From Candidatus Aenigmatarchaeota archaeon (GTDB taxonomy: Archaea; Aenigmatarchaeota; Aenigmatarchaeia; QMZP01; QMZT01): a DNA stretch of 64,000 bases. A program made the position numbers and the translations under genes. The notes beneath the pieces were generated by a model, which saw nothing but the letters and a program-made list of their open reading frames with translations, had not been told where the DNA came from and did no database searches. The stretch is taken from contig JBGPQP010000002.1 in assembly GCA_041489155.1 (NCBI GenBank), forward strand, positions 37,262 through 101,261, in the 5' to 3' direction. Below, piece after piece: positions 5,046 through 48,294 of the stretch (position 1 is the first letter of the stretch; each line of letters begins with the position of its first letter).

Positions 5046-6302
5046 TTATTTCTTTTTCCTGGAGGCTTTCTTCTCCTTGGTTTTCTTGGCTGCGGGAGGC
5101 CTTTCTCTTTTCTTCTCTTCCTTTGCCTTCTTTGCTGTTTCTTCCTTGGCCGCCTCTTTTTCTTGTTCGGGTTCCGCCTCTTCCTTCTTTATCTCAGGCA
5201 TGCGGCCGATCAGCGTGAAGGCGCCCGTTCCCATGGGTATCACCTGGTTCATTATTATGTTTTCCACGTGGCCCTTCAGAGGGTCCTTCAAGCCTTCTAT
5301 TGCGGCGGCTATAATATGTTTCTTGGTTTCCTCAAAGGCCATCCTGGCGAGGACCGAGTCCTTGTTGCCGGCTATGCCATAACGCCCTATGCCCATTATC
5401 CTTCCGTTCGACGTCATAAGGTCGGCAAGTATCGAGACATAGCGGATGTCGACGCCGAGGCCCTGCTCGCTTATGGTCTCGACCGCTTCCTTTATGATCG
5501 CGTTCCTCGCGGCCTCGACGCCAAGCACGTCGTATACCTCAAAGGGGTTGTTGCATGTCGTTCTCGTAGCATCGACGCCTTCGATTGAAAGCACCTTGCG
5601 CAGGTTCGAACCGAGCGTTGAAATCACCCATTCGCCGCTGTCCTCCTTGCTCACGATCACGTGGGAGATGTTCTTGACCCCCTTTATGTGGGTTTCCAGG
5701 AGCTTGTACTTGAGCTTGTGGAGGTTGATGCTCTCGGCCTTTTTGGAAGTGACTATGAGTTCCCTGCCCTTTGAATCGACATCGACGTTCTTCAGCTTTA
5801 CGTGCTTCGTCAGCTCCTTCGGGTCAAGGTCGAATTTCTTCAGCTTTTCTATGTCCAGATGGCACGAAACGGTCAGGTTTATCAGGTCTATGACATCGCT
5901 GAGCACGAAGTCCTTGAGCTTGACTTCCTTTATCTTCTTGGCGATTTCTATCGCCTTGTCTTCCGTGTTGTGCTCATGCATGAGGTATATGGTCATGCTC
6001 GGCGTCTCGGGCTCCTTCTTGGCGTCGAATATCTCGGCGAGCCTCGGAAGGCCCAGCGTGACCTGGATGCCCGCAGTACCTGCGAAATGGTACGTACGCA
6101 TGGTCATCTGCGTCGCAGGCTCTGAAAGCGACTGCGCTGTGACGACGCCGATCGCTTCTTCAGGGTCGTACATTGACATCTTGTAGAAGTGCCTGACCTT
6201 TTCCAGTATCTCCTTTCTTTTATCCTCGTCCAGCCCCTTCCTCTTGCAGTAATCCTCGACTTCATCTCTTATCTTTAAAGGCAGTCTGTCCATGTTAACC
6301 AT
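5046..6302 (-). CDS. rpoA2: DNA-directed RNA polymerase subunit A'' (Rpo1C) with K/E-rich C-terminal tail
   Basis: AIGVVTAQSLSEPATQMTMRTYHFAG... and GIAGNKDSVLARMAFEET are conserved Rpo1C blocks. Follows rpoA' with an 8-nt overlap. Confidence 0.95.
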   Translation of the reverse strand: MVNMDRLPLKIRDEVEDYCKRKGLDEDKRKEILEKVRHFYKMSMYDPEEAIGVVTAQSLSEPATQMTMRTYHFAGTAGIQVTLGLPRLAEIFDAKKEPETPSMTIYLMHEHNTEDKAIEIAKKIKEVKLKDFVLSDVIDLINLTVSCHLDIEKLKKFDLDPKELTKHVKLKNVDVDSKGRELIVTSKKAESINLHKLKYKLLETHIKGVKNISHVIVSKEDSGEWVISTLGSNLRKVLSIEGVDATRTTCNNPFEVYDVLGVEAARNAIIKEAVETISEQGLGVDIRYVSILADLMTSNGRIMGIGRYGIAGNKDSVLARMAFEETKKHIIAAAIEGLKDPLKGHVENIIMNQVIPMGTGAFTLIGRMPEIKKEEAEPEQEKEAAKEETAKKAKEEKKRERPPAAKKTKEKKASRKKK

Positions 6303-8829
6303 GCTCCACGTAATCCACCCAGTTTAGCTTGCCCCAGTCGGATTTGGTCGGGTCAATGCCGTCGTCTCCGGCATAGAACTGGATAACGTTGCCATTCGAA
6401 TCTCGTACGCTCATGTCGTCCCAGACCTTCAGATCCTGCAGGGAGTTCATGAGGCGGCGCTGCATGTAGCCCGATTTCCTCGTGCGCAGCGACTTGTCCA
6501 TGAGGCCCTCGCGGCCGTTCATCACGTTCCAGAAAAATTCGAAGGGCGTCAGCCCCTGTTTGAAGCCGCGCGCTACGAAGCCCCTTGTCTCGGCAGAAAG
6601 GTCGCCGACTCTGAAATGCGTCGTGGTCCTTCCCATGTAGCCTCTCTGTATCCTCTTTCCGAGAATGGTTTCCGAACCTACGCAGGCAGACATCTGGGTC
6701 GTGTTTATGTTCGAACCCTTCGCGCCTGAGCCGGACATCACGAGGATGTCGCTCGGCTTGATATTCTTTATCATGATATCGCTTACCTTGTTCAGGCCTT
6801 CGGCAAGGGTGGAAAGTATCTGGGTTTCAAGCGATTCCTCCGGCGTCATGCCGGGGAGGATTTTGAGCTTCCCCTCGCCGAACTTGTCGACCAGCTTGTC
6901 CGAATCTTTCATGGCCTTCTTTATCTCGTCCTCAATCACATGCTCGACCCTTGCCGGCACGTCGAGATCAGAAATGCCGATGGAAAACCCTCTCATCATG
7001 AGGTATGACGCACCGACCCTTCCGAGGCGGTCTATGAAGTTCTTTAGCTCGTCGTCGCTGACGAGGCGCCTTACCTTGTTGAGCATTTTCCCCTTGAAAG
7101 CGCCGACCGCCCTCGTGTCTATCACTCCACTTTTCAGCTCGCCGTTCTTTATGCAGACCCAGCAGTCGTGCTTGCATTCCTCCTTGGAGCACCTGTCGCA
7201 CTCCTTGCAGGCATTCGCCTTGAAATTCATGTTGAGCTTCTTGGGCAACAGAAGGCTTACTATTTCCTTGCCGGTGAACTCCTTCTTGTCGGGAAGCTCA
7301 AGGTCTATCGCCGCGCGCGATAAAAGCTCTGCCGCCGCCTTCCTCGAAAGGACAGTCTCACTCTTGGTAAGGAGGTACATGCCCGATACTTGATCGAGGT
7401 CCAGGCCCACCAGCGGGCCGCCGAACCTCGGGGAAATTATGTTATTCTTGACCTCCATGAGCATGGATGCTTCGACCTGCGCTTCCTCGGACTGGAGGGC
7501 ATGGATGTTCATCTCGTCGCCGTCGAAGTCTGCGTTGTAAGGCGCGCAAACGCTCGGGTTCATCCTGAACGTGCGGTAAGGCATTACCTTTACCCTGTGA
7601 ACCATTATGGAAACCCTGTGAAGCGAAGGCTGCCTGTTGAACAGGACGACGTCGCCGTCCTTAAGCTGCCTGTCAACGCTCCAGCCCGCTGCAAGGTTTG
7701 TAGTTATGTCCTTCCTGTTCTCTTCCGTGACCTTTATCTTCCTGCCGTCAGGCCTCGTTATGTAGTTCACCTTGCCGTCCTTTATCATGTCCTTTATGTT
7801 CTTGATGTTGAGCTGTGTGATGGTCTCCGGGATTGTCAGCTCTTTCGCGACCTCCTCAGCGGGAATGCCGACCTCGTTTATGGAAAGCGTCGGGTCGGGC
7901 GAGATGACCGTGCGTGACGAATAGTTAACCCTCTTGCCGAGCAGGTTCCCTCGTATGCGCCCTTCCTTTGCCTTCAATCTCTGGATTATGCCCTTTAACG
8001 GGCGTCCGGATCTGTGCCTCGCCTGGGGGATGCCGGTCAGCTCGTTGTCGAAATAAGTCGCGACATGATATTGCAGCAGCTCCCACAGATCGTTGAGTAT
8101 GAATTCGGGCGCGCCGATGTCTATGTTCTCCTTGAGCGACTGGTTTATCCTGACTATGTCGACTAGCTTGTGGGTGAGGTCGTCCTCCGAGCGCTCGCCC
8201 GTCTCCAGCGTAATCGACGGCCTCATGGTGACCGGCGGTATGGGGAAAAGCGTCAGTGCCAGCCATTCGGGCCGTCCGCCGCGGAAGCCGATCTTCTGAA
8301 GATCCTCGTCAGGCACGCGCTCGCACCATTCCCTTATCTGCATCGGGTTCAGCTCTTCCTTGCCGTAATAATAAGTATAAGGCTTGACGAATGTGACCTT
8401 GCTTCCCTGCTTTTCGCAGTGAGGGCATTTCCTTAGCGGCGCCTTGGAAACCTGATCCAGCGAGCGGGGCGCCTTGTGCAGGAGCCTGCCACATTTGGAG
8501 CACGTCGCTTTCAGCAGCTGGTATACCTGCTTGGTGTAGAGAACATGAACAACCGGCCTTGCCAGCTCGACGTAGCCGAAATGGCCCGGGCAGTCTCCTA
8601 TCGCGCCGCCGCATGTCCTGCAACGAAGGCCTGGATCAACGACTCCCATTCTCGGATCCATCGCCCCTCCGTCGACCGGGTAGCCGTCGGCGTCGTAAAG
8701 GTCGGACGTGACAATCCTTACCGTCGCCAGGGATTTCATTATGACCGGCGAAAGCAAGCCGAAATCAATTGAACTTATCTTCGATGAACTTATCTTCGAG
8801 AGATCCATACATCCACCATCAGATTTCAA
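6295..8829 (-). CDS. rpoA1: DNA-directed RNA polymerase subunit A' (Rpo1N)
   Basis: Zinc motifs CRTCGGAIGDCPGHFG and CSKCGRL, and the catalytic NADFDGDEMN motif. 844 aa; the start may be the internal Met at 8808. Confidence 0.95.
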   Translation of the reverse strand: MKSDGGCMDLSKISSSKISSIDFGLLSPVIMKSLATVRIVTSDLYDADGYPVDGGAMDPRMGVVDPGLRCRTCGGAIGDCPGHFGYVELARPVVHVLYTKQVYQLLKATCSKCGRLLHKAPRSLDQVSKAPLRKCPHCEKQGSKVTFVKPYTYYYGKEELNPMQIREWCERVPDEDLQKIGFRGGRPEWLALTLFPIPPVTMRPSITLETGERSEDDLTHKLVDIVRINQSLKENIDIGAPEFILNDLWELLQYHVATYFDNELTGIPQARHRSGRPLKGIIQRLKAKEGRIRGNLLGKRVNYSSRTVISPDPTLSINEVGIPAEEVAKELTIPETITQLNIKNIKDMIKDGKVNYITRPDGRKIKVTEENRKDITTNLAAGWSVDRQLKDGDVVLFNRQPSLHRVSIMVHRVKVMPYRTFRMNPSVCAPYNADFDGDEMNIHALQSEEAQVEASMLMEVKNNIISPRFGGPLVGLDLDQVSGMYLLTKSETVLSRKAAAELLSRAAIDLELPDKKEFTGKEIVSLLLPKKLNMNFKANACKECDRCSKEECKHDCWVCIKNGELKSGVIDTRAVGAFKGKMLNKVRRLVSDDELKNFIDRLGRVGASYLMMRGFSIGISDLDVPARVEHVIEDEIKKAMKDSDKLVDKFGEGKLKILPGMTPEESLETQILSTLAEGLNKVSDIMIKNIKPSDILVMSGSGAKGSNINTTQMSACVGSETILGKRIQRGYMGRTTTHFRVGDLSAETRGFVARGFKQGLTPFEFFWNVMNGREGLMDKSLRTRKSGYMQRRLMNSLQDLKVWDDMSVRDSNGNVIQFYAGDDGIDPTKSDWGKLNWVDYVEHG

Positions 8830-10621
8830 TCACGTTGAGTTTCGGGTATACGCCAAGCGATTTAAGCTCATCCATGGTCAGCTTGAAAGCGTACGACGTC
8901 GAAACCCAGAGTATCTTTGAGTCCTTGCATATCGGGCAGTACGTCTTGTTCTTCGTCTTGTCGTGTATCGCGATGAGGCCGCATGACTGGCATATGGGCA
9001 GCGACGTTTCGTCGGAACTGAACCTTTCCTTAAGTGTCAGCGCCGCGCCATGTCCTACAAGGCATTGCTGCTCCATCTCGCCGAGGCGAAGGCCGCCGCG
9101 CTTTGAGCGCCCTTCTGTCGGCTGCCTCGTGAGCAGGGTGACCGGTCCTTTCGACCTGGCATGAATCTTGTCAGCTACCATGTGGTCCAGTTTCATGTAA
9201 TACACGACCCCCGTGAAAATCATGACCTCGAATTTCCTTCCAGTCCTTCCATCGTAAAGCGTTTCCTTGCCGTCGTCCCTGAAGCCAAGTCTCTTCATTT
9301 CCTTGCGGATGAAGTCCTCCTTCATGCCGGAGAAGGCTGACGCATCGATCCTGCTGCCTGCTATGGAGCCGTACTTTCCGGCAAGAAGCTCAAGCAGCTG
9401 GCTCACCGTCATCCTAGAAGGGATGCCGTGCGGATTGAAGACGATGTCAGGAACGATGCCTTCTTTTGTGAAGGGCATGTCTTCCTGCGAGACCAGCAGC
9501 GCAGTCACGCCTTTTTGGCCGTGCCTGGTTGCGAACTTGTCTCCTAGCTCAGGAATGCGCTCGTCCCTTGTCCTCACCTTGAACAGCTGCTCGCCGCTCG
9601 AGGTCTCGCTTATCAGTATCCTGTCGACTATGCCCCTCTCGCCGTATCTTATCGTGACAGATGATTCGCGCTTGTTCTCGATGTCAGTCGTGAAGTCGCC
9701 TCCTGTCAGGAAGCGGAGCGGCGAGGTCTTGCCTATGAGGACGGAATCGGATTCCACCGGCGTTTCCGGGTTTATGATGCCGTCTTCAGGGATTTCCTTG
9801 TAGGCTTCCTCTCCCCTGTAGCCCTTTATGCCCGGCTCGGGGATGCTTATTATGTCCTCCTGGCCACCCCAGTAACGCTTGCGGATGGTTTCATACGTCC
9901 TGAAGTAGAATGACCTGAACATGCCCCTGTCGACGGACGCCTTGTTAAGCACGACGGCGTCGTTCATGTTGAAGCCGTCCCAGCACATGACTGCGACGAC
10001 GATGTTCTGGCCGTAGGGATGCTGGCACAAAATCTTGTCCGTCGCGGTGTCGACAAGCGGCATCTGCGCATACGTGAGTATGTTGAACTTGGTGTCGGTC
10101 CTCACATGGAAATTGTCGATCGGTGCGCCTATCGCCTGGCCCACCATTTTCGCGCCGTAGTTGACGCGGTCGCCGCGGTTGTATTCCGGGTAAGGCGTAA
10201 GGCTTGCGGAAATGCCAAGGATTATGATGGGGTTGAGCTCGACATGCGTGTGCTCTTTCGTTATCTTGCTCTCGTCTATCGCTATAAGCGTGTTCTCCTC
10301 TTCCTCGGCATCGATGTATTCCACGATGCCGTGCTTCACCAGGAAGCTCCACGTTATCTTGCTCTTGCCGAGCTTGTCTACGTGGTCCTTCGTCAGCTTG
10401 GATTTCCCGTCCTCGACCACGACAAGCGGCCGCCTCGCGCGGCCGGAATCAGTGTTTATCCTTATCTCGTTGAACATGGGATGGAAGGAAACGTTCAGCT
10501 GGTCCGGGAGCAGGCCGTGCCTTCTCTTCTTTCTTAGTTCCACTGTCAGCTCCTCGGGCTTGTTGGTTGTGCCTATGAAGTTGCCATTGAAGTAAATATC
10601 GCTCTCGTTCTTTCCCTTCAT
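8819..10621 (-). CDS. rpoB1: DNA-directed RNA polymerase subunit B' (Rpo2C, C-terminal half of B)
   Basis: GDKFATRHGQKGV, RMTVSQLLE and a C-terminal zinc ribbon CQSCG...CPICK. 600 aa. Confidence 0.95.
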   Translation of the reverse strand: MKGKNESDIYFNGNFIGTTNKPEELTVELRKKRRHGLLPDQLNVSFHPMFNEIRINTDSGRARRPLVVVEDGKSKLTKDHVDKLGKSKITWSFLVKHGIVEYIDAEEEENTLIAIDESKITKEHTHVELNPIIILGISASLTPYPEYNRGDRVNYGAKMVGQAIGAPIDNFHVRTDTKFNILTYAQMPLVDTATDKILCQHPYGQNIVVAVMCWDGFNMNDAVVLNKASVDRGMFRSFYFRTYETIRKRYWGGQEDIISIPEPGIKGYRGEEAYKEIPEDGIINPETPVESDSVLIGKTSPLRFLTGGDFTTDIENKRESSVTIRYGERGIVDRILISETSSGEQLFKVRTRDERIPELGDKFATRHGQKGVTALLVSQEDMPFTKEGIVPDIVFNPHGIPSRMTVSQLLELLAGKYGSIAGSRIDASAFSGMKEDFIRKEMKRLGFRDDGKETLYDGRTGRKFEVMIFTGVVYYMKLDHMVADKIHARSKGPVTLLTRQPTEGRSKRGGLRLGEMEQQCLVGHGAALTLKERFSSDETSLPICQSCGLIAIHDKTKNKTYCPICKDSKILWVSTSYAFKLTMDELKSLGVYPKLNVIEI

Positions 10622-12081
10622 TTTGCTTCACCCTTCAAAAGGCTGATTATAGCGTCTTCTTCCTCTTTCGAAATGCCCGGCGTTATTTCAGTGAGCAGCG
10701 CCAAGTGCTTCCTTAAACCGATGGAGCTTCCTTCTGGCGTTTCAGCCGGGCATAGCCTTCCCCACTCGGTCGGATGTATCTGCCTTGCCTTGAAATGCTC
10801 CTGCGTCGGCGTAAGCGGCGAGAGGACCGAGCGCAGGTGCGAAACCGTCTTTATGTAGGAGCTCCTGTCCAGCCGCTGTGACACGCCCGTTCGCCCGCCA
10901 ATCCAGGTCCCTGTCGCCAGCGACGAAAGAATCTGTTTCGTCACCGTGTTCGCCTCGATTATCGATTGCACGGACGGGAACTTGCCGCGCTTTACGAGTT
11001 TCTGGTAGTTGTACGTCATCTTCGCTATCAGGCCCCATCTTCCAAGGAGAATCGATCTGAAAAGCTGCTCGAAAAGCTCGCCTGACATGAGCAGGCGCTT
11101 GTTCGAATAATGGTCTATGTCGTCTTCCGGCGAGATGTCGAGTTTTACGGAAATGCATTTCCTTATGATCCTCGCCAGGTACTTGCTCTTCCTCAGCCTG
11201 TCGCCGACCTCTTGGCCCAGATGCGGCAGGAGGTAGCGGTCAAGTATCTGGTTAACCCGCTCTTCTATGTAATCCTTTGTGACCTTCAGCTTCTTGCCTA
11301 TGAAATCGACCGCTTCCTCGGTCGTGATGACGTCGGTTTCGTAAAGGTTCGTATAAAATTCATTCAGTATCCTGTCGTCTCTCGAGACCAGGTCGCACAG
11401 CTCCTTGTCGTTCTCAAGGCTCAGCGCTTTCAGCAGAACAACAATGGGGAGTTTCTTGATATTGGCAAAAGAAATCGTTATTTCACCGTCGGGTTTCATC
11501 TCGACGAGGTGCCTCTGCTTGAAGCCCGAGCGCTCGGAGTTTATCCTCACCGAGACGCCGTCTTCCTCAGTCTTTTCGAAAATCGGCTTGTTTGATGAGA
11601 TTTCCTCTATAAGAACAAGTACTCTTTCGGTCCCGTTGACAACAAAGTATCCGCCCGGATCAGTTGGGTCCTCGCCGGCCGCGATGAGCTCCTCGTCGCT
11701 TATGCCGTTGAGGTTGCATATCTTTGATTTTACCATGACAGGCAAATCGCCGACGTGGACATTCTCCGATTTCTCCTGCACGCCGTTGAATATGGGTGTT
11801 ATCTTGACGAATATGGGAGCCATGTAGTTGAGGTTGCGTACTCTCGCCTCGTTGGGGAAAATCGCGCGGCTCGAGCCGTCGGCTTCGTGCACGACCGGCT
11901 TGCCGAGCGTGACCTCGCCGAACTTGATTTTGAGGTCTTCCTTGTCCTGCGCGACTCGTATCGTCCCGACCTCGTTGATTATCTTCTGCAGGCCGAAGTC
12001 GATGAAGTTGTTGAAGGACTCTATCTGATACTTGACCCACTCCCTCTCCTTCCCGAAACCGCCAACGATAGCTACAATCAT
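10618..12081 (-). CDS. rpoB2: DNA-directed RNA polymerase subunit B'' (Rpo2N, N-terminal half of B)
   Basis: N-terminal Rpb2 blocks (QIESFNNFI..., DPGGYFVVNGTERVLV, RLCPAETPEG). ATGA overlap with rpoB' at 10618-10621. Confidence 0.95.
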   Translation of the reverse strand: MIVAIVGGFGKEREWVKYQIESFNNFIDFGLQKIINEVGTIRVAQDKEDLKIKFGEVTLGKPVVHEADGSSRAIFPNEARVRNLNYMAPIFVKITPIFNGVQEKSENVHVGDLPVMVKSKICNLNGISDEELIAAGEDPTDPGGYFVVNGTERVLVLIEEISSNKPIFEKTEEDGVSVRINSERSGFKQRHLVEMKPDGEITISFANIKKLPIVVLLKALSLENDKELCDLVSRDDRILNEFYTNLYETDVITTEEAVDFIGKKLKVTKDYIEERVNQILDRYLLPHLGQEVGDRLRKSKYLARIIRKCISVKLDISPEDDIDHYSNKRLLMSGELFEQLFRSILLGRWGLIAKMTYNYQKLVKRGKFPSVQSIIEANTVTKQILSSLATGTWIGGRTGVSQRLDRSSYIKTVSHLRSVLSPLTPTQEHFKARQIHPTEWGRLCPAETPEGSSIGLRKHLALLTEITPGISKEEEDAIISLLKGEAK

Positions 12082-12490: not shown

Positions 12491-12660
12491 TGGGCCCGGC
12501 GGGAATCGAACCCGCGACCCCCAGATATCTTTCCGCACCGTATTCTGTCATCAACAAAAACGCAGACCTACACAGGTGAAACCTGTGTCATGCGCTTGTT
12601 TCAGCATACTTTTATCCAACAGATAAAAGTCTGGTGCTCTACCGATTGAGCTACGAGCCC
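12491..12660 (-). tRNA. tRNA-Lys(UUU) with a 97-nt intron at the canonical 37/38 position
   Basis: Minus strand: GGGCTCG TA GCTC AATCGGTA GAGC A CCAGA CTTTTA [intron] A TCTGG GGGTC GCGGG TTCGATT CCCGC CGGGCCC A. All four stems pair. No encoded CCA. Confidence 0.85.
12527..12623 (-). other. intron of tRNA-Lys (97 nt)
   Basis: Lies between A37 (12624) and A38 (12526). Contains a perfect 8-bp hairpin ACACAGGT-TTC-ACCTGTGT. The boundary is ambiguous by a few nt because TCTG occurs at both ends. Confidence 0.7.
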
Positions 12661-12701
12661 ACGAAGCGAAAGGCACAGGCTTCGCCTATATGCCAATCAC
12701 A

Positions 12702-12774
12702 CGCCCTGGCCGGGATTTGAACCCGGGTCCTCGGAGTGACAGTCCGAGATGATAGACCACTACACTACCAGGGC
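12702..12774 (-). tRNA. tRNA-Asp(GUC), intron-less
   Basis: Minus strand: GCCCTGG TA GTGT AGTGGTCTA TCAT C TCGGA CTGTCAC TCCGA GGAC CCGGG TTCAAAT CCCGG CCAGGGC G. Has the G10:U25 wobble typical of tRNA-Asp. Confidence 0.9.
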
Positions 12775-12892
12775 ACCGTATTTAGCTTGTGCTTGTTTGC
12801 CAGTGTTATATGTATTATTTCTAATCGAGTCCGATATTTATAAGTTTAACAAACACAGAAAGCCAAAAAGCAAAAAGGATAAAATTAACAGT

Positions 12893-13007
12893 AGTGAGCA
12901 GCTATCTGGATTTCCCCCTTTTCAGGAGTACTTTCCAGACCGCCGGGGAGTTTAACTTCCGTGTTCGAAATGGGAACGGGTGAACCTCCCCACTTTGGCC
13001 GCTCGTA
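12893..13007 (-). rRNA. rrf: 5S ribosomal RNA (ends approximate)
   Basis: Minus strand reads GAGCGGCCAAAGTGGGGAGGTTCACCCGTTCCCATTTCGAACACGGAAGTTAAACTCCCCGGCGG...CCAGATAGCTGCTC. It holds the conserved CCCGUUCCCAUUUCGAACACGGAAGUUAA block and a terminal helix GAGCGGC/GCTGCTC. Confidence 0.75.
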
Positions 13008-22524: not shown

Positions 22525-23184
22525 TCATGCGAGTTCTATTGTCAGCACGCCGTTCTTGAATGTCTGGTTGAAGATGCTGGTTTCAGGAGGCTTTGTGAGA
22601 ATCTTGAAATACGCCTTTTCGCCTGCTATGGCTTTGACTTCGATGGAGTTCTCAAGCTTCTTCACCTCAATGTCATTCGCGTTCCTGACGCCGGGCAGTT
22701 TTATCTCAACAAGTGTTTTGCTGCCTACCTTCTTCATGCAGGTCACAGGCTCTTCGGTGTGCTTTGCACTGTCAAAGCATATGCCCTGCGCTCCACTGCT
22801 TTCAGTTTTTTCAGGCCTTATTGCCTTGGATATGCGGTCTCCGAAGCCCATCTTGTCCGCTTCCTTCTCTATCGCCTTCTTCGGGACGTCGCCGAAGGTC
22901 TGTATCGAAACCTTTGGCTTGTGGCCGGTGCCCTGCGTTATCTTTATGGAGAAGCCGCTGCCCCTCATGGGCTTGGTGTTTTTGGGGAACATTGGTATAA
23001 GGTCTGCGAACTCGAAATTCTTTTCCAGGGCCTTGTTCATCTCGCTCATTTCGCGTTCCATGCGCTCGAACACATCGCCGAATAAAGCGCGTTCTTTAAT
23101 CTCCAGCTCCGCGCCGCAGCTGGGGCAGAACTTCCATCTCGCGTCCGTTTCTCTGCCGCAGTTGGCGCATCTCATATGTATCAT
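22525..23184 (-). CDS. zinc-ribbon / Hsp20 (alpha-crystallin domain) fusion protein
   Basis: N-terminal CANCG-x10-CPSCG ribbon. C-terminal ...LVEIKLPGVRNANDIEVKKLENSIEVKA...FKNGVLTIEL is a small-HSP ACD signature. Confidence 0.7.
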   Translation of the reverse strand: MIHMRCANCGRETDARWKFCPSCGAELEIKERALFGDVFERMEREMSEMNKALEKNFEFADLIPMFPKNTKPMRGSGFSIKITQGTGHKPKVSIQTFGDVPKKAIEKEADKMGFGDRISKAIRPEKTESSGAQGICFDSAKHTEEPVTCMKKVGSKTLVEIKLPGVRNANDIEVKKLENSIEVKAIAGEKAYFKILTKPPETSIFNQTFKNGVLTIELA

Positions 23185-23197
23185 GTTTTATTTGAAA

Positions 23198-25540
23198 TTA
23201 TAAAAGTTTTCTGGCCATAGTCACGAGCCTCGGCTTTTTCATCAGGATCAGGGCGAGCCTCTTGAAGCCAGACGCTCTCGCGAAGCCGACGAGTTCGTCG
23301 CCATTAAGGTATTCGGCCAGCCAGTTGAGTTCGTCATCCTTCAGGTTTTCGACGACGTGCCTCAGCTTCAGGATTCTCTTCAACCTTTCCCCGCGTTCCT
23401 TCCACCATCTTCTCTCGTATTCGGCGAGCTTCGCCTTTGAATAATCATTCGCTTTTATCGCCTTTGCAATCGTTTCGCTTGCCATGCGACCTGCGACATA
23501 CGCTTCAGCTATGCCGCCTCCGTGAATCGGGTTGACCTGATGCGCTGCATCGCCGACGACGACGAAATTGTCAGCCACCATGCTTCTGAGGAAGCCGCCG
23601 ACAGGCACGCCGCCCGAGTTGGCTTCTATGGTCGATCCCTTGCGCAGGGCTTCGCGCTCCCTTATGAAATCCCTGAGGTATGATATCGCCGACCTTTTTG
23701 AGAAGGGCTTTCTCACGCCTATGCCGACATTCGCGCTGTCCTTCCCTTTCGGGAATATCCAACAATTATGCACAATAAAACCAGGGCAGAATGAACCGTT
23801 AGATTGGATATCATATACCTTTCCTGTATATTTTTCACGTCTTAGGCTTCTTACACCCATAAACAAAAATCCTTCTTTTACAAACGACCTGCTGTTTTTC
23901 AATTCTCCATATTTGCATTCACCGAATATTGTATCTAGCTTTTTCAATTGTTTGCCATAAATTCGTAAACGATATGCATTTTTCTTTTTTATTCTTCCAA
24001 CTGAACCAGCTATATTTATTGTTGATAAAAACATCCACAAGTCGTATAACATTCGTTTTGACGTTGTGGTAAGGTTTAAATGTTCATCTTCACGTTTTGA
24101 TTTTTTCTCTTTGTTCCCGTCACCTCTGAAAAGACCTTTTAAAAACGCTATCTTTAGCTCATCATCCAGACCAAAGAAAAAATGCGGTATATGTTTATTA
24201 TGGCAACCTCTTCCGAATAAAGACTCGAATAATTGTTTTAAAATTTTGGAAGCAAAATGCACTTGCACGCATGTTTTTTCTCCTGATGTTTTTTTATTTT
24301 TCCATAGGCTGGCCTCAAATCCGAATGTCTCCTCTCCTATTTCTTCCACTCTATTTATTATGTTTTTATCTGTATTGCTTATAATAATGCCATTGGAGTT
24401 TGTGTTACCCTCTGACACATAATAACCAAAAAACTCCATCAATTTTTCTGTTATTTCTAGATTATTTTTTATGCCATGTTTATATGCAAATTCAGCCCCA
24501 AATTGATTTCTGCCTATAGGATATGTTTTACCATCTTTTACTATACCTTTCACGTAATCCTGAATTTTAATGTGTGTAATTCGTTTCTCTTTTGGGATGG
24601 GTAATATTAGGTAATCGCCATCTCTGTGATTACCCCTCCTTCCCTTTATTATTTCCTTTGCCTTTTTCCATGCAAATCCATCTTTTTTGTTCCATATATA
24701 GACTAGATGGCCCGGGGTTAGTCTAACTTCATTATTGAACATAAAGGGAGTTATGGTGATGATTTCTCCATCGTATTCCCTTATAGAGATAGCGGAAGCA
24801 GGGACCCATCCTTTCATCGTGAATACTTCTTCACCGATTTTAACATCAGAAATTGGTTTGAGCGTATTTTTAGTGATAATTTCTGTATCAGGTGTCAGAC
24901 AATATCCGCCAGGCGCGATAGCGTTGCCGAAGTAGAGCTCGATCCTGTCGGGATCTATGCTCACGTTCGTCATCTCGAACTGCGCGCAGGACGCAATCTC
25001 GGAAAGCGGGAGCGTGGTGTCTATGCCCATCATTCTCGGGAGCCTTGACTCGATGCCGTCGCAAGCGACAAGAATCTTGCACCCGATTTCAAGGGTTTCG
25101 TTGCCAGACCTCAGTTTTACAGCGAGCCTGTTCCCGTTCCTTCTCGCTCCTATGACCTCGGTTTTGGTCAGGACCCTGGCGCCCGCCTGAACGGCGAGTT
25201 TCGCCAGGTACTTGTCAAGCATCTTCCTCTCGATTATCCATCCCTCAGGCCCGTCGAAATCGGCGGTTATCTTCTTGCCGTTGGGCGCGTAAATGCTCGC
25301 ACCCTTTACGACTTTAGAAATCCACGAATTATCGACCTTTATTTCCATCCTTTCCGCGGCGGACCTCGAAAGGCCCTCGCCGCAGCGCTTCGGGCTGCCT
25401 ATCTCCTGCCGCTTCTCGACTGCTAGGGTTTTCAGGCCTTTTTCAGCGCAGTGTCTCGCGACTGAAGAGCCAGCGGGCCCGACGCCGACAACCAGCACAT
25501 CATACTCCCTGTCAATATACTCGAACATAATATCACCCAA
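23198..25540 (-). CDS. geranylgeranyl reductase family FAD oxidoreductase (lipid saturase) interrupted by an intein
   Basis: YDVLVVGVGPAGSSVARHCAEKG (FAD GxGxxG), ...APGGY / CWIFPKG... and C-terminal VVVGDAAHQVNPIHGGGI are GGR motifs. The exteins sum to 401 aa, the normal GGR size. Confidence 0.85.
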   Translation of the reverse strand: MGDIMFEYIDREYDVLVVGVGPAGSSVARHCAEKGLKTLAVEKRQEIGSPKRCGEGLSRSAAERMEIKVDNSWISKVVKGASIYAPNGKKITADFDGPEGWIIERKMLDKYLAKLAVQAGARVLTKTEVIGARRNGNRLAVKLRSGNETLEIGCKILVACDGIESRLPRMMGIDTTLPLSEIASCAQFEMTNVSIDPDRIELYFGNAIAPGGYCLTPDTEIITKNTLKPISDVKIGEEVFTMKGWVPASAISIREYDGEIITITPFMFNNEVRLTPGHLVYIWNKKDGFAWKKAKEIIKGRRGNHRDGDYLILPIPKEKRITHIKIQDYVKGIVKDGKTYPIGRNQFGAEFAYKHGIKNNLEITEKLMEFFGYYVSEGNTNSNGIIISNTDKNIINRVEEIGEETFGFEASLWKNKKTSGEKTCVQVHFASKILKQLFESLFGRGCHNKHIPHFFFGLDDELKIAFLKGLFRGDGNKEKKSKREDEHLNLTTTSKRMLYDLWMFLSTINIAGSVGRIKKKNAYRLRIYGKQLKKLDTIFGECKYGELKNSRSFVKEGFLFMGVRSLRREKYTGKVYDIQSNGSFCPGFIVHNCWIFPKGKDSANVGIGVRKPFSKRSAISYLRDFIREREALRKGSTIEANSGGVPVGGFLRSMVADNFVVVGDAAHQVNPIHGGGIAEAYVAGRMASETIAKAIKANDYSKAKLAEYERRWWKERGERLKRILKLRHVVENLKDDELNWLAEYLNGDELVGFARASGFKRLALILMKKPRLVTMARKLL
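23765..24901 (-). mobile_element. intein (379 aa) with LAGLIDADG homing-endonuclease domain
   Basis: Block A CLTPDTEII (Cys1 codon 24899-24901), block B LTPGHLV, LAGLIDADG motifs FFGYYVSEGN and FLKGLFRGDGN, block F VYDIQSNGSFCPG, block G FIVHN followed by +1 Cys (23762-23764). The region is strongly AT-rich relative to the flanking exteins. Confidence 0.85.
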
Positions 25541-25598
25541 TAAATCTTTTTAATAGCCTATTTATTTATAAAATAAGATATAAAAAGTTCGTTAAGAG

Positions 25599-26075
25599 TT
25601 GGTGGTGTTTGTGTCGTTTTTCGGTAAGAAGAGGGAAGGCATCAAGAGGAATGTTGCTCTGTTTGTGGACGGACCGAATATAATAAGAAGGGAATTCAGC
25701 ATTGATCTGGACGAGCTTAGGAAGAACATAGAGAAGTACGGCAGAATCGTGACCGGAAAAGTCTTCCTTAACCAGCATGCCCCCGACAAGCTGATCGAAG
25801 CCGTCGCCAATCAGGGCTTTGAGCCTAAAGTCGTGCTGGCCGGCGAGGCCGAAGCGGACGTTGACGTCAGCGTCGCGGTCGAAATAGTCAAGGCCGCTTA
25901 CAACGATAAAATCGACGTGATCGCCCTCGCTTCTAGAGACGCTGATTATCTGCCTGCGATACAGCTTGCCAAGGAGAAGGACAAAATCATCGTGATAATC
26001 GGCATAAACCCCGGCTTTTCCAGGGCCCTGCAGAACGTCGCGGACAGCGTTGAAATTCTGACCAAAAGGGTTTGA
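25599..26075 (+). CDS. NYN-domain (LabA/DUF88-like) putative RNase
   Basis: VALFVDGPNI..., DVDVSVAVEIV and VIALASRDADYLPAIQLAKEKDKIIVIIG match the NYN/LabA layout. Confidence 0.75.
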   Translation: MVVFVSFFGKKREGIKRNVALFVDGPNIIRREFSIDLDELRKNIEKYGRIVTGKVFLNQHAPDKLIEAVANQGFEPKVVLAGEAEADVDVSVAVEIVKAAYNDKIDVIALASRDADYLPAIQLAKEKDKIIVIIGINPGFSRALQNVADSVEILTKRV

Positions 26076-26741
26076 ATGAGAGTGAAAGAAAACCTATCGG
26101 CGGTTAGAAAGCAGATCGAACAGGCAGCGAAAAAATCGGGGAGATGTGCCGAAGACATAGTTCTCGTCGGCATTTCCAAGACCGCCAGCGTCGAGCTAGT
26201 GAAAGAAGCCGTAGGCTGCGGTCTTGCCGACATCGGGGAGAACCGCGTGCAGGAAGCCGAAAAGAAATTCCCCCTGCTTTCCGGCGTCAGGAAGCATTTC
26301 GTCGGTCACCTGCAGTCCAACAAGGTAAAAAAAGCGGTTGAAATATTTGATGTCATCCAGTCTGTCGATTCAATCGAGATCGCCAGGAAAATCGATGAGC
26401 AAGCGCTTCGGATGGGCAAGACCATGCCTGTCCTCATCCAGGTGCGCACGGATGAAATGAAGGAGTTCGGGATAAGGCCTGTCGAAACCGAAAAATTTCT
26501 CAGGAAAGCGGCAAAGCTTGAAGGCACACGTATTCTGGGTTTAATGACAATCGGGCCGGCATTTGAAAATCCCGAAGATTCGCGTCACGTATTCAGGGAA
26601 ACGAAAAAGCTTTTCGACTCGCTAGCGCGAATACCGCACGTGGAAATGCGCTATCTCTCTATGGGCATGAGTTTCGATTTCAGAATAGCGATAGAAGAAG
26701 GCGCAAACATGGTGAGAGTGGGAAGGGCAATTTTTGACTAG
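26076..26741 (+). CDS. yggS: YggS-family pyridoxal-phosphate homeostasis protein (PLPBP)
   Basis: LVGISKT (PLP lysine), IGENRVQEAEKKF, HFVGHLQSNKVKK, LSMGMSFDF. Start directly abuts the NYN gene stop. Confidence 0.85.
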   Translation: MRVKENLSAVRKQIEQAAKKSGRCAEDIVLVGISKTASVELVKEAVGCGLADIGENRVQEAEKKFPLLSGVRKHFVGHLQSNKVKKAVEIFDVIQSVDSIEIARKIDEQALRMGKTMPVLIQVRTDEMKEFGIRPVETEKFLRKAAKLEGTRILGLMTIGPAFENPEDSRHVFRETKKLFDSLARIPHVEMRYLSMGMSFDFRIAIEEGANMVRVGRAIFD

Positions 26742-36693: not shown

Positions 36694-38298
36694 ATGCCGA
36701 AGAAAACCCAGTACATCGTTGTAACCGGCGGAGTGATATCCGGTCTTGGCAAGGGGATATTCACTGCTTCTCTAGGAAAACTGCTCCAGTCAAGGGGTTT
36801 CAAGGTCGTTCCCATCAAGATCGATCCTTACATGAACGTCGATGCAGGAACGATGAACCCGATAGAACACGGAGAGGTCTTCGTCCTCGATGACGGCAGC
36901 GAGGTCGACATGGATCTGGGAACATATGAACGCTTCCTCGACATCAACCTGAAAAGCGAAAACAACATAACGACCGGAAAAATCTACCAGAAAGTCATCG
37001 AAAAGGAAAGGGAAGGCAAATACCTCGGCAAGACTGTCCAGATAATACCGCACATAACAGACGAGATACAGAACTGGTTCAAAAAAGTCGCTGAGGATTA
37101 CAAAGCAGAAATAATCATGATAGAAATAGGCGGAACGGTAGGAGACATAGAGAACCTAGTCTTCCTCGAGGCATGCAGGCAGTTATCTTTGAAAGAGGAT
37201 GTGATATTCGTACACTGCACCCTTGTTCCGGTGATGAGCGTGGTGGGCGAGCAGAAAACGAAACCCACACAACAAAGCGTGCAGAAGCTCAGGGAGATAG
37301 GCATAATGCCTCACTTCCTTTTCTGCAGAGCCCATGAACAGATAAAACCAAAAATAAAGGAAAAACTTTCTCTCTTCTGCGGCCTGCCGGAGGAAAACGT
37401 CATATCAGGCCCTGACCTGGACAGCATATACAAGCTGCCACTAATCCTCGAGAAGCAGGGTGTGACAAAAAAGGTTCTTGAAAAACTGGGCCTTGTCCCC
37501 AAGAAAAAGGACATGAAAGATTGGGAGCAGGCAGTAAGGAACATGGTGAATGCAAAGAAGATCGTAAACATTGCCATCACTGGCAAATACACGGAGTTGC
37601 ACGATTCTTACGTCTCTATAATGGAGTCGCTTAAAGCTTCATGCGGAAAGCTTGGAGTGAAAATAAAGATAAAATGGATAGAAACGACTGACATTGAAAA
37701 CAAAAAAGTAAAGGTTGCTGATGCCCTGAAGAACATAGACGGTATAATAGTGCCTGGCGGTTTTGGCCCAAGAGGAACTGAAGGCAAGATAGAATGCATA
37801 CGCTATGCCAGAGAGAGGAAAATACCCTTCCTCGGCTTGTGTTATGGTTTCCAGCTGGCGACCATCGAGTTCTCAAGGAACGTGTGCGGCCTCAAAAACG
37901 CGAACTCTACGGAAATCGACCCGAATAGCCCCCATCCGGTAATTGATCTGCTGCCAGAGCAGAGAAAAATTTACAAAAAAGGCGGAACTATGCGCCTTGG
38001 AGGCCACGACGTGATAATCAGGAAGGGCACGCTGGCCAGCAGGGTTTACGGCTCGCTGAGCACGAGAGAAAGATTCCGCCACCGCTGGGAGTTCGTCCCA
38101 AAATACAGGGAAAAGGTTGAATGTAAGGGTTTTGTCTTTTCCGGCCATGACAAATCCGGCAATATAATGCAGATACTGGAACTAAACGGGCATCCTTTCT
38201 TCATGGCGTCGCAGTTCCATCCGGAATTCACAACGCGAGTTCTCAAACCGAATCCGCTGTTCCTGAACTTCATCAGGGCAGCATCCAAGAACGCTTAA
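36694..38298 (+). CDS. pyrG: CTP synthase
   Basis: [39 protein letters not shown] (GATase Cys), SQFHPEF. Confidence 0.95.
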
Positions 38299-43907: not shown

Positions 43908-44816
43908 ATGAAAAAATATGTACCGGACCTGGTTACACGCTCTGATGCAGCTAAATATTTAGATATCTCAGGGGAGCAGGTAGACAAATATCTAAGGCCG
44001 GTAATGCGGGATGGAAAGCCCCATAAGAAGGGAAGAGAGTTCGCATATTTTAGAGTCGATTTGATACAAGCAAAAATTGAAAAGGACAAAGCCGAAAAAA
44101 GAGCTAGAATGACGACACTTGGGCCGGAAAATCTTGATCCATCTGAGAAAGAGAAACTGGATGGAAGCTCATTAATTTATGAGGCATGGTGTGCCTTGGG
44201 CGACAGAATAGGTGAACTTTCCGAACCTCAGAGAAAGATAATAGAAGGGATATTGGGTAAAAATGAGACATACACTGGGGATAAAATTATAAAAAGCATT
44301 TCTTATGGCTGGTCAACGAAGATCAAGCTCAAACCTAGCATCATATCAAAATACGTCGACCCTTCGGTGCTTGAAAGAGAAGGTGTGATAGAAACCGGTT
44401 ATAATGAGAAAGTATGGATGGAGGGTGGGCGGGAAATCATCAGAGATCAGCTGTATGCCGTGCTCCAGAAATTTGAAAAAATATGCAAAAGAGGGAAAGT
44501 GGATGTTACTACAATGAACCAAAAGGCTTTCAATGGATTTGTAACTGATTTTTCAAAAAAATATGGCGTTGAAATACCTCCAAGCATTTTGAAGAGAATG
44601 CTGACTGATTATAAAAACCAGAATCTAACAGACGACAAACTAGGAAATTACGCAAGAAATCTTTTCACAAGAACCGTATCTAAAAAACTTAAAACCAGAA
44701 ATCTTAGGATAACCATGGCTGACAAGCAGCTCATAGAGCAGATAGCTCGAGGTAGGGCAGAAAAATTGGATTTCCCAGAGTTACAGCACGTTTTAAACTT
44801 GCTGCTTGGCGAGTGA
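43908..44816 (+). CDS. hypothetical protein with N-terminal excisionase/MerR-like HTH
   Basis: LVTRSDAAKYLDISGEQVDKYL resembles a helix-turn-helix. The rest is unrecognised. The gene is more AT-rich than its neighbours. Confidence 0.45.
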   Translation: MKKYVPDLVTRSDAAKYLDISGEQVDKYLRPVMRDGKPHKKGREFAYFRVDLIQAKIEKDKAEKRARMTTLGPENLDPSEKEKLDGSSLIYEAWCALGDRIGELSEPQRKIIEGILGKNETYTGDKIIKSISYGWSTKIKLKPSIISKYVDPSVLEREGVIETGYNEKVWMEGGREIIRDQLYAVLQKFEKICKRGKVDVTTMNQKAFNGFVTDFSKKYGVEIPPSILKRMLTDYKNQNLTDDKLGNYARNLFTRTVSKKLKTRNLRITMADKQLIEQIARGRAEKLDFPELQHVLNLLLGE

Positions 44817-46536: not shown

Positions 46537-48294
46537 CTACTTTACTGTTACCGATTTTGCCAGATTCCTCGGTGTATCTATTTCACATCCTCTCTGCAGG
46601 CCGAGGTGATAGGCCAGCAGCTGGATCGGGATTATGTTCACAAGCGGCGAAGCGAGACCGACATCCGGCGTCTTTATCCAGAAATCGAAAACGTCATATT
46701 TCTTCGGCCCGACTCCGATTATGTAACCGCCCCGCGCCTTGATTTCCATGGCGTTGCTTATCGTGTCATGGTCAGCGCCGCCTCCGGTCAGAACTATGCA
46801 GGGCGTGTTTTTTTCTATAAGCGCGATAGGCCCGTGCTTCAGCTCGCCTCCGGCGAAACCATGGGCGTGTATGTAGCTGACCTCCATTATCTTAAGGGCG
46901 GATTCCAAGGCGACCGGATAGTTGAGGGACCGTCCTATCACATAGATGTTCCTTTTCCTGCATATCTGCTTAGCCAAGTTCTTTATCCTTTCATCGTATC
47001 TGGGATTAAGCATGTCATTTATTTTACCGGCGGCGTCAAGCAGAAGCCATTTGCCTTCATCCATCTTGCCTTTGCATGCATATGCAATAAGATATATTAT
47101 TGCAAGCTGTGCGGTCGTGGCTTTCGTAGAAGCTACTGCTTTTTCCGGGCCTGCATTTATGAAAAAGGTGAAATCTGACATGCGGTCTAGTGATGAACCT
47201 TTAACGTTTATCAGCGATATTACCTTTACGCCTTTTGTCTTGGCCGCCTTCACGGCTTCCAAGACATCCGCAGTCTCCCCGCTCTGGGAAACGGTTATCA
47301 GCAGGGTTTTCTTTGTGAGAAAATCCGTGTAATTCGGGAATTCGGAAGAAACTATGTAATTGACATGCTTGTTGGCAATGGCAGAAAATATGTACTCGCC
47401 GGTATGGCATACGTTTCCGGCAGTTCCGCATCCTGTAAGGAAAACGCCGTAAGCCTTGTTTATCTCTTTTGCTACCTTCTCTATTTCCCTGTCGTTCTGG
47501 TTTATCGCCCTGATGATGGTTTCCTTCTGCTCCATTATTTCTTTTATCATGAAATGTTCGTAGTCGCCTTTCTCTGCCTGCCTCGCATCCCAGTCTATCC
47601 TTATTATCCTTTTTTCGATGTTCTTGCCGCTTTCTATGCTCAGGAATACTGGTTTTTTGTATCTTTCAAGAACGACCATTTCCCCGTCATCAAGATACAT
47701 GACATTGTTTGTTCTCTTCAGAAACGCGGGAACGTCCGATGCAATGAAGTATTCATTGCTGCCTACCCCGAGAATAAGAGGCGAGCCGTTCCTTGCGGCA
47801 ACGATGCCGTCAAAATCATCTTTTATGGCCAGAACAGCAGACCTGCCCTTCAATAATCTCATGGTCCTTCTCAAAGCTTCCGGCAGGCCGAGCTCGATGT
47901 TGTCTTCTATGAGATGCGCTACAATCTCGCTGTCGGTTTCTGATCTGAACACGTGCCCTTTCTTTGCCAGACTCTTCCTGATTGCCTCGAAGTTCTCTAT
48001 TATACCGTTATGGATTATTGCTATGCGCTTTTCGCAGTCAAGATGTGGGTGCGCATTCGCCTTGGAAGCCTTGCCATGCGTTGCCCATCTGGTATGCGCA
48101 ATCCCAAGGGAACCAGGAAGTTTTTCGAAGCCTGCCTCGCTTACCTTTCCCTTGCTCTTTCTTACCCATATCTTTCCGTTTTCAAGCGTTGCGAAGCCAT
48201 AGGAATCATAACCACGGTATTCGAGCTTCCGCAGACCATCAAAAAGCAGGGGTGTCGCGTCGCTTTTTCCTATGTAGCCTATTATGCCGCACAT
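46537..48294 (-). CDS. glmS: glutamine--fructose-6-phosphate aminotransferase
   Basis: MCGIIGY (Ntn Cys), AHTRWATHG, two SIS domains, C-terminal NLAKSVTV. Confidence 0.95.
   Translation of the reverse strand: MCGIIGYIGKSDATPLLFDGLRKLEYRGYDSYGFATLENGKIWVRKSKGKVSEAGFEKLPGSLGIAHTRWATHGKASKANAHPHLDCEKRIAIIHNGIIENFEAIRKSLAKKGHVFRSETDSEIVAHLIEDNIELGLPEALRRTMRLLKGRSAVLAIKDDFDGIVAARNGSPLILGVGSNEYFIASDVPAFLKRTNNVMYLDDGEMVVLERYKKPVFLSIESGKNIEKRIIRIDWDARQAEKGDYEHFMIKEIMEQKETIIRAINQNDREIEKVAKEINKAYGVFLTGCGTAGNVCHTGEYIFSAIANKHVNYIVSSEFPNYTDFLTKKTLLITVSQSGETADVLEAVKAAKTKGVKVISLINVKGSSLDRMSDFTFFINAGPEKAVASTKATTAQLAIIYLIAYACKGKMDEGKWLLLDAAGKINDMLNPRYDERIKNLAKQICRKRNIYVIGRSLNYPVALESALKIMEVSYIHAHGFAGGELKHGPIALIEKNTPCIVLTGGGADHDTISNAMEIKARGGYIIGVGPKKYDVFDFWIKTPDVGLASPLVNIIPIQLLAYHLGLQRGCEIDTPRNLAKSVTVK

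Follow-up and report, generated by a model that had tools for sequence, protein, structure and literature searches.

What are 379 additional amino acids (aa) doing in the middle of the conserved catalytic-cavity motif of an archaeal geranylgeranyl reductase (GGR), the enzyme by which archaea saturate their membrane lipids? This question is raised by a stretch of 64,000 nucleotides (nt) from contig JBGPQP010000002.1 of a Candidatus Aenigmatarchaeota archaeon, the whole of which is referred to here as the window. A first-pass annotation of the sequence had described a 780-aa frame for a GGR-family enzyme, interrupted at 23765-24901 by a full-length LAGLIDADG intein, and these coordinates proved exact. 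In our reading, to which we give a probability of about 0.85, the insert is an in-frame class-1 LAGLIDADG intein in the GGR gene of a member of the Aenigmarchaeota (DPANN archaea), which is predicted to excise itself from the protein, to home into empty alleles, and to have come from an AT-rich donor.

The precursor and its insert

The interrupted open reading frame (ORF) counts 780 aa from a TTG codon (Table 1). The ATG at 25528 is probably the true start, because the orthologues are 397 aa long and all begin with MFE...; the same 776-aa product with the ATG start was called on JGI and Logan contigs. CLTPDTEI starts at residue 214 of the 780-aa ORF, and HN/CWIFPKG closes the insert at residue 592 (slashes mark the splice junctions), which delimits the 379 aa at 23765..24901. 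After excision, 401 aa remain when counted from TTG and 397 aa when counted from ATG, the latter being also the length of the orthologues without an intein that lie in synteny in related Aenigmarchaeota (DPANN). The excised product described earlier, 401 aa with a contiguous motif, was thus right in its motif and in its count from TTG, but with the probable ATG start the product shortens to 397 aa and the precursor to 776 aa. The reading frame is open across all 776 codons. An assembly chimera or artefact was rejected, since the identical 776-aa protein is present in independent assemblies (JGI 3300052989, a 66.8-kb metagenome contig; Logan SRR29605724; and an NCBI record).

Every intein block of the first-pass annotation (Cys1, TxxH, two LAGLIDADG motifs, block F, the terminal HN, and the +1 Cys) was found in the insert, which holds the complete set of class-1 splicing residues: Cys1, Thr62-x-x-His65, Asp364, His378, Asn379, and the +1 Cys. 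On the endonuclease side, the acids E164 and D261 and the lysine of block D, K236, are kept. Pfam LAGLIDADG_3 matched the insert in two stretches (1.1e-17). The NCBIfam matches fall on intein parts, with NF045703 as the best, followed by the RpoA'', GyrA, PolII, and V-ATPase models. Among PDB sequences, the insert matched PI-PkoII (2e-9) and V-ATPase inteins.

The AlphaFold2 model of the intein (predicted local distance difference test [pLDDT] 81.7; predicted template modelling score [pTM] 0.82) is all-beta at residues 1-128 and 339-379, with an alpha/beta core in between. A Foldseek search against the PDB placed whole endonuclease-bearing inteins on top: TliVMA (TM-score on the query [TMq] 0.66-0.69) was followed by PI-PkoII, PhoVMA, PI-SceI, and PI-PfuI, the set spanning TMq 0.5-0.69. 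Free-standing LAGLIDADG enzymes such as I-DmoI reached TMq 0.34 at most, and because endonuclease-only structures reach just this value, the Hint half of the model is matched beside the endonuclease half. A double-motif, two-lobed LAGLIDADG endonuclease is also what the secondary structure and the fold matches to I-DmoI and PI-SceI indicate. Taken from motifs and model together, the insert is a canonical class-1 intein that has a LAGLIDADG homing endonuclease nested in it, and the intein is probably active.

The structure-solved inteins TliVMA and PhoVMA (7QSS, 7QSU, and 7QST), PI-PkoII (2CW7), PI-PfuI (1DQ3), and PI-SceI (1VDE) have the same Hint horseshoe split by a double-LAGLIDADG endonuclease. 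They share Cys1, TxxH, the block-D Lys, the block-F Asp, and a terminal HN plus nucleophile with the window intein. However, their hosts are V-ATPase, DNA polymerase, or ribonucleotide reductase, whereas the host in the window is an FAD-dependent lipid reductase (FAD, flavin adenine dinucleotide). The window intein is only 12-17% identical to them, and its splicing domain is too divergent for the Pfam and TIGR intein thresholds. NF045703, an NCBIfam exception model for the intein-containing tetraether lipid synthase Tes, matched intein residues 139-368 (3e-18). Tes is another archaeal membrane-lipid enzyme carrying a LAGLIDADG intein, but it is a radical-SAM protein, only the endonuclease region is similar, and with 65 bits against a cut-off of 1700 bits the window protein is a non-member.

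Table 1. Features of the precursor gene and its intein (positions in the window; all on the reverse strand)
Feature	Position	Strand	Remarks
ORF with TTG start	23198..25540	(-)	780 aa
Precursor gene, GGR-family flavoprotein plus intein	23198..25528	(-)	776 aa from the probable start ATG 25528; stop codon 23198..23200
N-extein, 209 aa	24902..25528	(-)	FAD-binding GxGxxG (GVGPAG), active-site Cys (RCGEG); ends ...NAIAPGGY, Tyr at -1
C-extein, 188 aa	23201..23764	(-)	+1 Cys codon 23762..23764; motif resumes as CWIFPKGKDSANVGIG; GDAA, GGG motif
Intein, 379 aa, class 1 with nested LAGLIDADG homing endonuclease	23765..24901	(-)	AT-rich island
N-terminal splicing (Hint) region, residues 1 to ~128	24518..24901	(-)	Model all-beta, pLDDT 75-96
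Block A Cys1	24899..24901 (codon)	(-)	Invariant in 37/37 alleles
Block B T62-x-x-H65	24707..24718	(-)	T62 and H65 invariant in 37/37 alleles
LAGLIDADG homing-endonuclease domain, residues ~145-330	23912..24469	(-)	Pfam LAGLIDADG_3, PI-PkoII sequence match, I-DmoI/PI-SceI fold matches
LAGLIDADG motif 1, LMEFFGYYVSEGN	24404..24442	(-)	Catalytic acid E164 (...YYVSE164GN)
LAGLIDADG motif 2, KIAFLKGLFRGDGN	24113..24154	(-)	Catalytic acid D261 (...FRGD261GN); block-D K236 (NKHIP) upstream
C-terminal splicing region, residues ~339-379	23765..23887	(-)	Block F VYD364IQ; model beta strands, pLDDT 85-94
Block G GFIVH378N379	23765..23782	(-)	H378 and N379 invariant in 37/37 alleles
Split cavity motif YxWxFPx8GxG	23717..24904	(-)	Tyr(-1) 24902..24904 on the N side; CWIFPKGKDSANVGIG 23717..23764 on the C side; intein at 'x'

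Host enzyme and insertion site

By sequence, the host protein is a GGR-family FAD enzyme, as had been annotated. The spliced sequence matched TIGR02032 (GG-red-SF, geranylgeranyl reductase family) in one stretch with 258.2 bits (cut-off 158.8), and the Pfam GGR_cat match (1e-20), split in the precursor, became contiguous once the insert was removed. The best solved-structure match was the digeranylgeranylglycerophospholipid (DGGGPL) reductase of Thermoplasma acidophilum (3OZ2, E 3.7e-80), followed by the GGR of Sulfolobus acidocaldarius (4e-33). The alignment to these two enzymes that had been proposed at the outset was carried out; it is colinear with 3OZ2 and continues without a gap over the junction (query APGGYCWIFPKGK versus APAGYIWVFPKGE). 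The spliced extein aligns end to end with 3OZ2 and with the S. acidocaldarius GGR (3ATQ/4OPC), and the motifs are in common: GVGPAG (GxGxxG), RCGEG (active-site Cys), YCWIFPKGKDSANVGIG (YxWxFPx8GxG), and HGGG (GGG), the motif definitions, including YxWxFPx7-8GxG, being those of earlier work (PMC6309074; PMC4244643). Unlike the window gene, both enzymes are without an intein, and the motif x is Ile in T. acidophilum and Trp in S. acidocaldarius, where the window protein has Cys. The DGGGPL reductase equivalogs were not reached (score/cut-off in bits: NF041160, 292/780; NF041080, 215/580; NF041385, 92/700). Because of these equivalog scores, the protein is filed at the family level, as a GGR-family member. 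A second GGR paralogue was looked for within the window and none was found.

The intein lies directly before the variable x of GGY-x-WIFPKG, between Tyr and x, in the motif YxWxFPx8GxG that serves the catalytic cavity and substrate positioning (PMC4244643; PMC6309074). Across the 120 closest GGRs without an intein, Y, W, P, and K never vary, and GGY-x-WIFPKG as a whole is essentially invariant except for x; the continuity of PGGY-x-W-x-FP predicted for the excised protein is therefore what intein-less relatives have. Position x is Val in 61 of these sequences, Ala in 43, Ile in 5, and Phe, Cys, and Gly in 3 each. In every intein-bearing allele at this site, x is Cys, the +1 nucleophile. The GGR site is thus a classic intein niche, in which the DNA target is highly conserved and a tolerant residue is able to supply the nucleophile. 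Cys is evidently tolerated at x, since three intein-less relatives (P0044, P0085, and P0089; 59-63% identical to the extein) carry GGYCWIFPKG. The Cys of these three proteins could be a scar of precise intein loss or could mark a pre-adapted target.

Alleles, empty sites, and movement

A word-indexed protein search gave only 4 relatives of the intein, and the family came to light when 1.84 billion representative proteins were searched exhaustively with HMMER (4288 relatives at E<=0.001; 27 at E<=1e-30). The best matches are GGR-family proteins with an intein at the same site. A scan of the GTDB species genomes with one peptide pattern, which sets a lower bound, gave at least 9 loci, all at the same GGR site; their hosts are a Diapherotrites, an Iainarchaeum, two Micrarchaeota, three Nitrososphaerota/Nitrosopumilales, and two unclassified archaeal metagenome-assembled genomes (MAGs). 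Of the 49 loci from a metagenome scan, about 35 have the intein at this site of a GGR host. Pooled, at least 37 non-identical inteins occupy this site in GGR-family genes of DPANN and Nitrososphaerota.

All 37 alleles have C1, T62, H65, D364, H378, and N379, in contrast to the variable positions around them. Of the 37, 28 have intact endonuclease residues, 8 carry substitutions in them, and 1 has lost the whole domain; residue by residue, the motif-1 Glu is kept in 29/37, the motif-2 Asp/Glu in 29/37, and the block-D Lys in 34/37. In Micrarchaeota/Anstonellales, a 198-aa mini-intein (P0003/L003 5001-6809/L053) sits at the same site as a 383-aa full-length intein (P0126), and the exteins of the two are 91% identical. 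The mini-intein keeps exactly both splicing halves, the endonuclease domain being cleanly removed. This pair is endonuclease loss captured inside one lineage. Splicing under strict selection combined with a decaying endonuclease is the prediction of the homing-cycle model for a selfish intein.

Same-site copies in public records include a Ca. Diapherotrites protein (PIN98562.1, 'hypothetical protein'), a Ca. Anstonellales protein (MGB9719592.1, 'LAGLIDADG family homing endonuclease'), and Nitrososphaerota MAGs (L010-L014). They share the GY/C...HN/CW.FPK insertion point and the invariant splicing residues, with intein identities of 33-61% to the window copy. They differ in that their hosts belong to other DPANN phyla and to Nitrososphaerota, their exteins are 26-60% identical, and some of their endonucleases are decayed or deleted. 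Some intein-bearing alleles, such as L011 with a C-extein frame ending after 37 aa and L054 with stop codons past intein residue ~318, look truncated or frameshifted and could be either pseudogenes or products of faulty assembly. P0128, a divergent GGR-like flavoprotein of 706 aa on a 77.6-kb NCBI contig, carries a related intein (42% identical); its insertion point is shifted upstream by three residues, and the nucleophile is Ser (...RPYPGL/CVTADT...LIHN/SGYYWYFPLG), which points to an ectopic move into a paralogue at a displaced site. The closest inteins outside GGR are those of P0133, P0141, and P0145 (31-33% identical). P0141 is a GT1-family glycosyltransferase, another non-replicative host, and the Pfam search of P0133 gave no host domain.

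The placement of the host in the Aenigmarchaeota is borne out by its RpoB'' and CTP synthase, which share 90%-identity clusters with proteins named Candidatus Aenigmarchaeota by NCBI, and by the closest GGRs, which bear that name too. Intein-less alleles in related genomes, suggested as a check in the first-pass annotation, were found. In related Aenigmarchaeota genomes, among them a 1.1-Mb contig, an uninterrupted 397-aa GGR stands in the same order of genes (HypC, ORF, EamA, Ala_racemase_N [PF01168], NYN, GGR, zinc-ribbon protein, T2SSF, T2SSF). These syntenic GGRs are 74-79% identical to the spliced extein, the closest at the protein level being 79% identical. The reconstructed empty site differs from that of the closest relative (L015) at 7 of 51 nt, three of which lie in the +1 codon (GTC versus TGT). 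The empty-site alleles L015, L017, and L018 gave the candidate homing target, AACGCTATCGCGCCGGGCGGATAC/GTCTGGATATTCCCGAAGGGCAAGGAC and variants.

From these residues and sites, the following course can be proposed. The 776-aa precursor would be translated with its cavity motif split by 379 residues and would be catalytically dead. Splicing would begin with an N-S acyl shift at Cys1, helped by block-B Thr62 and His65, and proceed by trans-thioesterification to the +1 Cys. Asn379 would then cyclise with the help of His378 and block-F Asp364, and an S-N shift would leave Tyr(-1) joined to Cys(+1) and the intein released. This would yield a 397-aa GGR in which Cys takes the place of the Val or Ala of its relatives. 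Either the precursor or the freed intein would cut empty alleles at the conserved ...GGxTAy/GTxTGGATATTCCC..., and repair would copy the intein in.

Movement between hosts was considered by comparing intein and extein identity in 325 pairs of complete alleles. Where extein identity was <60%, the intein was the more similar part in 216/216 pairs; where it was >=60%, the intein was the less similar part in 105/109 pairs. Over all allele pairs, intein and extein similarity were correlated with r = 0.78. Judged by these identities, the intein evolves faster than the host gene inside a lineage and is younger than the host-gene divergence across lineages. From the latter it follows that the inteins have moved between divergent GGRs. 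The nearest intein-bearing allele, L022, has an extein identity of 59.5% and an intein identity of 61%.

The base composition of the insert is unlike that of its host. GC content is 34.2% in the intein, 55.9% in the N-extein, 54.1% in the C-extein, and 48.4% in the window. At third codon positions (GC3), the intein has 0.296 and the exteins have 0.70 and 0.67. Since the third codon positions show the contrast too, it is more than an effect of amino-acid content, and the AT-richness of the insert noted at the outset is confirmed. An unsupervised two-breakpoint segmentation of 22600..26100 placed its breaks at 23754 and 24888, 11-13 nt off the intein ends (log-likelihood gain 52.6). The GC3 gap (0.30 versus 0.68) is, together with that of L022, the widest among the alleles. 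The other large ORFs of the window mostly have GC3 of 0.52-0.80. Two ORFs without a Pfam match are lower, 43908-44816 (+) with 302 aa and 0.39 and 49366-50439 (-) with 357 aa and 0.34; both may be further foreign DNA.

Because its codon composition is strongly foreign, we consider the window copy a fairly recent import from an AT-rich DPANN-like donor, with moderate confidence in the recency. DPANN genomes with GC3 of 0.2-0.27 bear inteins 54-56% identical to the window copy with the same GFIVHN terminus, and the most plausible donors are other DPANN archaea with the same intein. The horizontal acquisition proposed in the first-pass annotation is thus supported by the GC3 contrast and by the comparison of intein with extein similarity. 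A viral vector was considered and is unsupported; the scan of viral contigs gave only two weak partial matches (30-31% identity, first 91-115 residues), both in non-GGR proteins. In most high-GC hosts of the Nitrososphaerota type (L033-L045 and L012-L014), intein GC3 lies ~0.1-0.24 under that of the exteins (about 0.57-0.68 versus 0.74-0.87), and DPANN hosts with low or moderate GC have inteins whose GC3 is nearer or equal to their own. The GGR-site intein family seems to have a systematic AT bias or to receive a continuing flux from AT-rich donors.

Competing readings and wider context

Several results weigh against a splicing, mobile, and recently imported intein. The Pfam Intein_splicing model scored 22.8 bits, under its cut-off of 35.8, and none of the TIGR intein N- and C-terminal models matched the insert at E<=0.01; the profile search proposed earlier was thus positive for the endonuclease (LAGLIDADG_3, 1.1e-17) but sub-threshold for the splicing domain. 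Because the splicing-domain profiles are weak, the Hint assignment rests on motifs, predicted fold, and family conservation. The AlphaFold2 input alignment was shallow (5 sequences). A near-identical donor intein was sought and none was found, the best match being L022 (61%), and this nearest allele has the same GC3 contrast. The AT bias may also be partly intrinsic to the element and not a sign of recent arrival, since the family inteins are AT-richer than the exteins in most high-GC hosts.

The low splicing-domain score would also suit an insert that does not splice at all, be it in a disrupted GGR pseudogene or as a lineage-specific domain rather than an intein. DPANN archaea have reduced genomes and could tolerate losing a lipid enzyme. 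Such an insert is nevertheless scarcely credible: the frame is intact over 776 codons, none of the six splicing residues varies across the 37 alleles, no catalytic motif is missing from the exteins, which share 79% identity with orthologues without an intein, and exactly the two splicing halves survive in the mini-intein. As for the lineage-specific domain, which the first-pass annotation had named as the finding that would speak against an intein, the splicing blocks are present and the predicted fold matches whole inteins. More weight is due to the view that the intein splices while its endonuclease is inactive or out of targets, which would make it a fixed, vertically inherited passenger late in the homing cycle and not mobile now. 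Decay is common in the family, 9/37 same-site alleles being without the endonuclease residues or the domain; in close hosts the intein tracks the extein, merely faster (105/109 pairs; r = 0.78 overall), and the nearest intein relative is only 61% identical. However, the window copy keeps E164, K236, and D261 within a complete, confidently predicted two-lobed LAGLIDADG fold, and a GC3 of 0.30 in a host near 0.7 is hard to square with long residence. The closest syntenic relatives have empty sites, and therefore targets exist in the lineage. We regard a resident passenger as unlikely, though worth keeping in mind.

It is also conceivable that the intein now serves its host as a conditional switch, in which redox- or temperature-gated splicing would govern lipid saturation, for instance through a disulfide involving Cys1, the +1 Cys, or Cys372. 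Since it is the catalytic cavity of a redox flavoenzyme that is interrupted, the precursor should be inactive; the Cys1/+1 Cys pair is present in all alleles, and the Cys of GSFC372P (block F/G) is frequent. Inteins as environmental sensors is an idea advanced for replisome inteins (PMC4760082). Yet the distribution in close relatives is sporadic and the closest orthologues have no intein, foreign composition combined with endonuclease decay is the signature of a selfish element, and Cys nucleophiles are the commonest intein chemistry. A switch thus appears very unlikely, and the self-splicing, homing intein of AT-rich origin is preferred.

Among archaeal intein hosts, 66.9% belong to COG category L and 8.3% to category F (PMC4760082), so that replication/repair and nucleotide metabolism make up about three quarters. 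The first-pass annotation had called a membrane-lipid enzyme an unusual host; it does lie outside these dominant categories, but it is no one-off, as the same allele occurs in at least 37 public sequences. The literature searched, in which the Novikova survey was represented without its supplements, describes no intein in GGR or DGGGPL reductase. The sole co-occurrence of intein and GGR terms, in a Nodularia genome paper, was unrelated. JGI labels the window protein 'flavin-dependent dehydrogenase/intein/homing endonuclease', and NCBI names its relatives 'LAGLIDADG family homing endonuclease' or 'hypothetical protein'. The type of element is textbook, and the host and the insertion site are new to the searchable literature, although unremarked same-site copies are public.

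Other inteins were sought in the window. A phmmer search of the intein against all ORFs >=150 aa matched only the intein itself, and Pfam found no Hint or LAGLIDADG domain in the window's RpoA', RpoA'', split RpoB'/B'', GlmS, CTP synthase, and glutamine synthetase. The classic host genes RpoA'', RpoA', RpoB'/B'', CTP synthase, and GlmS, which lie among 5046-12081 (-), 36694-38298 (+), and 46537-48294 (-), are intein-free, and no gene in the window other than the lipid reductase was seen to be invaded. Elsewhere, a tRNA gene at 12491-12660 (-) has a 98-nt insertion after the anticodon loop CUUUUA (Rfam 59 bits; missed by ARAGORN) and is presumably tRNA-Lys(UUU) with an intron; it adjoins tRNA-Asp(GUC) at 12701-12775 and 5S rRNA at 12893-13006. 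Very large ORFs of 1201, 637, and 1254 aa at 52729-58247 (-) and 60178-63942 (-) have weak repeat-like Pfam matches (Baculo_PEP_C, apolipoprotein-like, and NPCBM_assoc) and are probably coiled-coil or surface proteins.

The GGR intein implies no new mechanism. It flags mis-annotated GenBank entries that are in fact GGRs, and the related Cys1/+1 Cys inteins, including the 198-aa mini-intein, could be mined for protein engineering. As a rather speculative extension, an undescribed 'GGR-a' intein allele may circulate among DPANN episymbionts (Aenigmarchaeota, Diapherotrites/Iainarchaeota, and Micrarchaeota) and Nitrososphaerota, with splicing that is possibly redox- or temperature-conditional and gates membrane-lipid saturation. 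If this were true, the GGR-a intein would be a gene-flow marker among ultra-small archaea and a natural post-translational switch outside the replisome. The allele is a clean case of the usual rule that the element sits at a tolerant residue in an otherwise invariant catalytic motif. As a well-populated intein allele in a membrane-lipid flavoenzyme, in which full-length, endonuclease-dead, and mini-intein stages are seen, it widens the range of intein host functions. Since similarity is higher between the inteins than between their hosts, the spread of these inteins over several DPANN phyla and Nitrososphaerota could trace gene exchange among uncultivated archaea.

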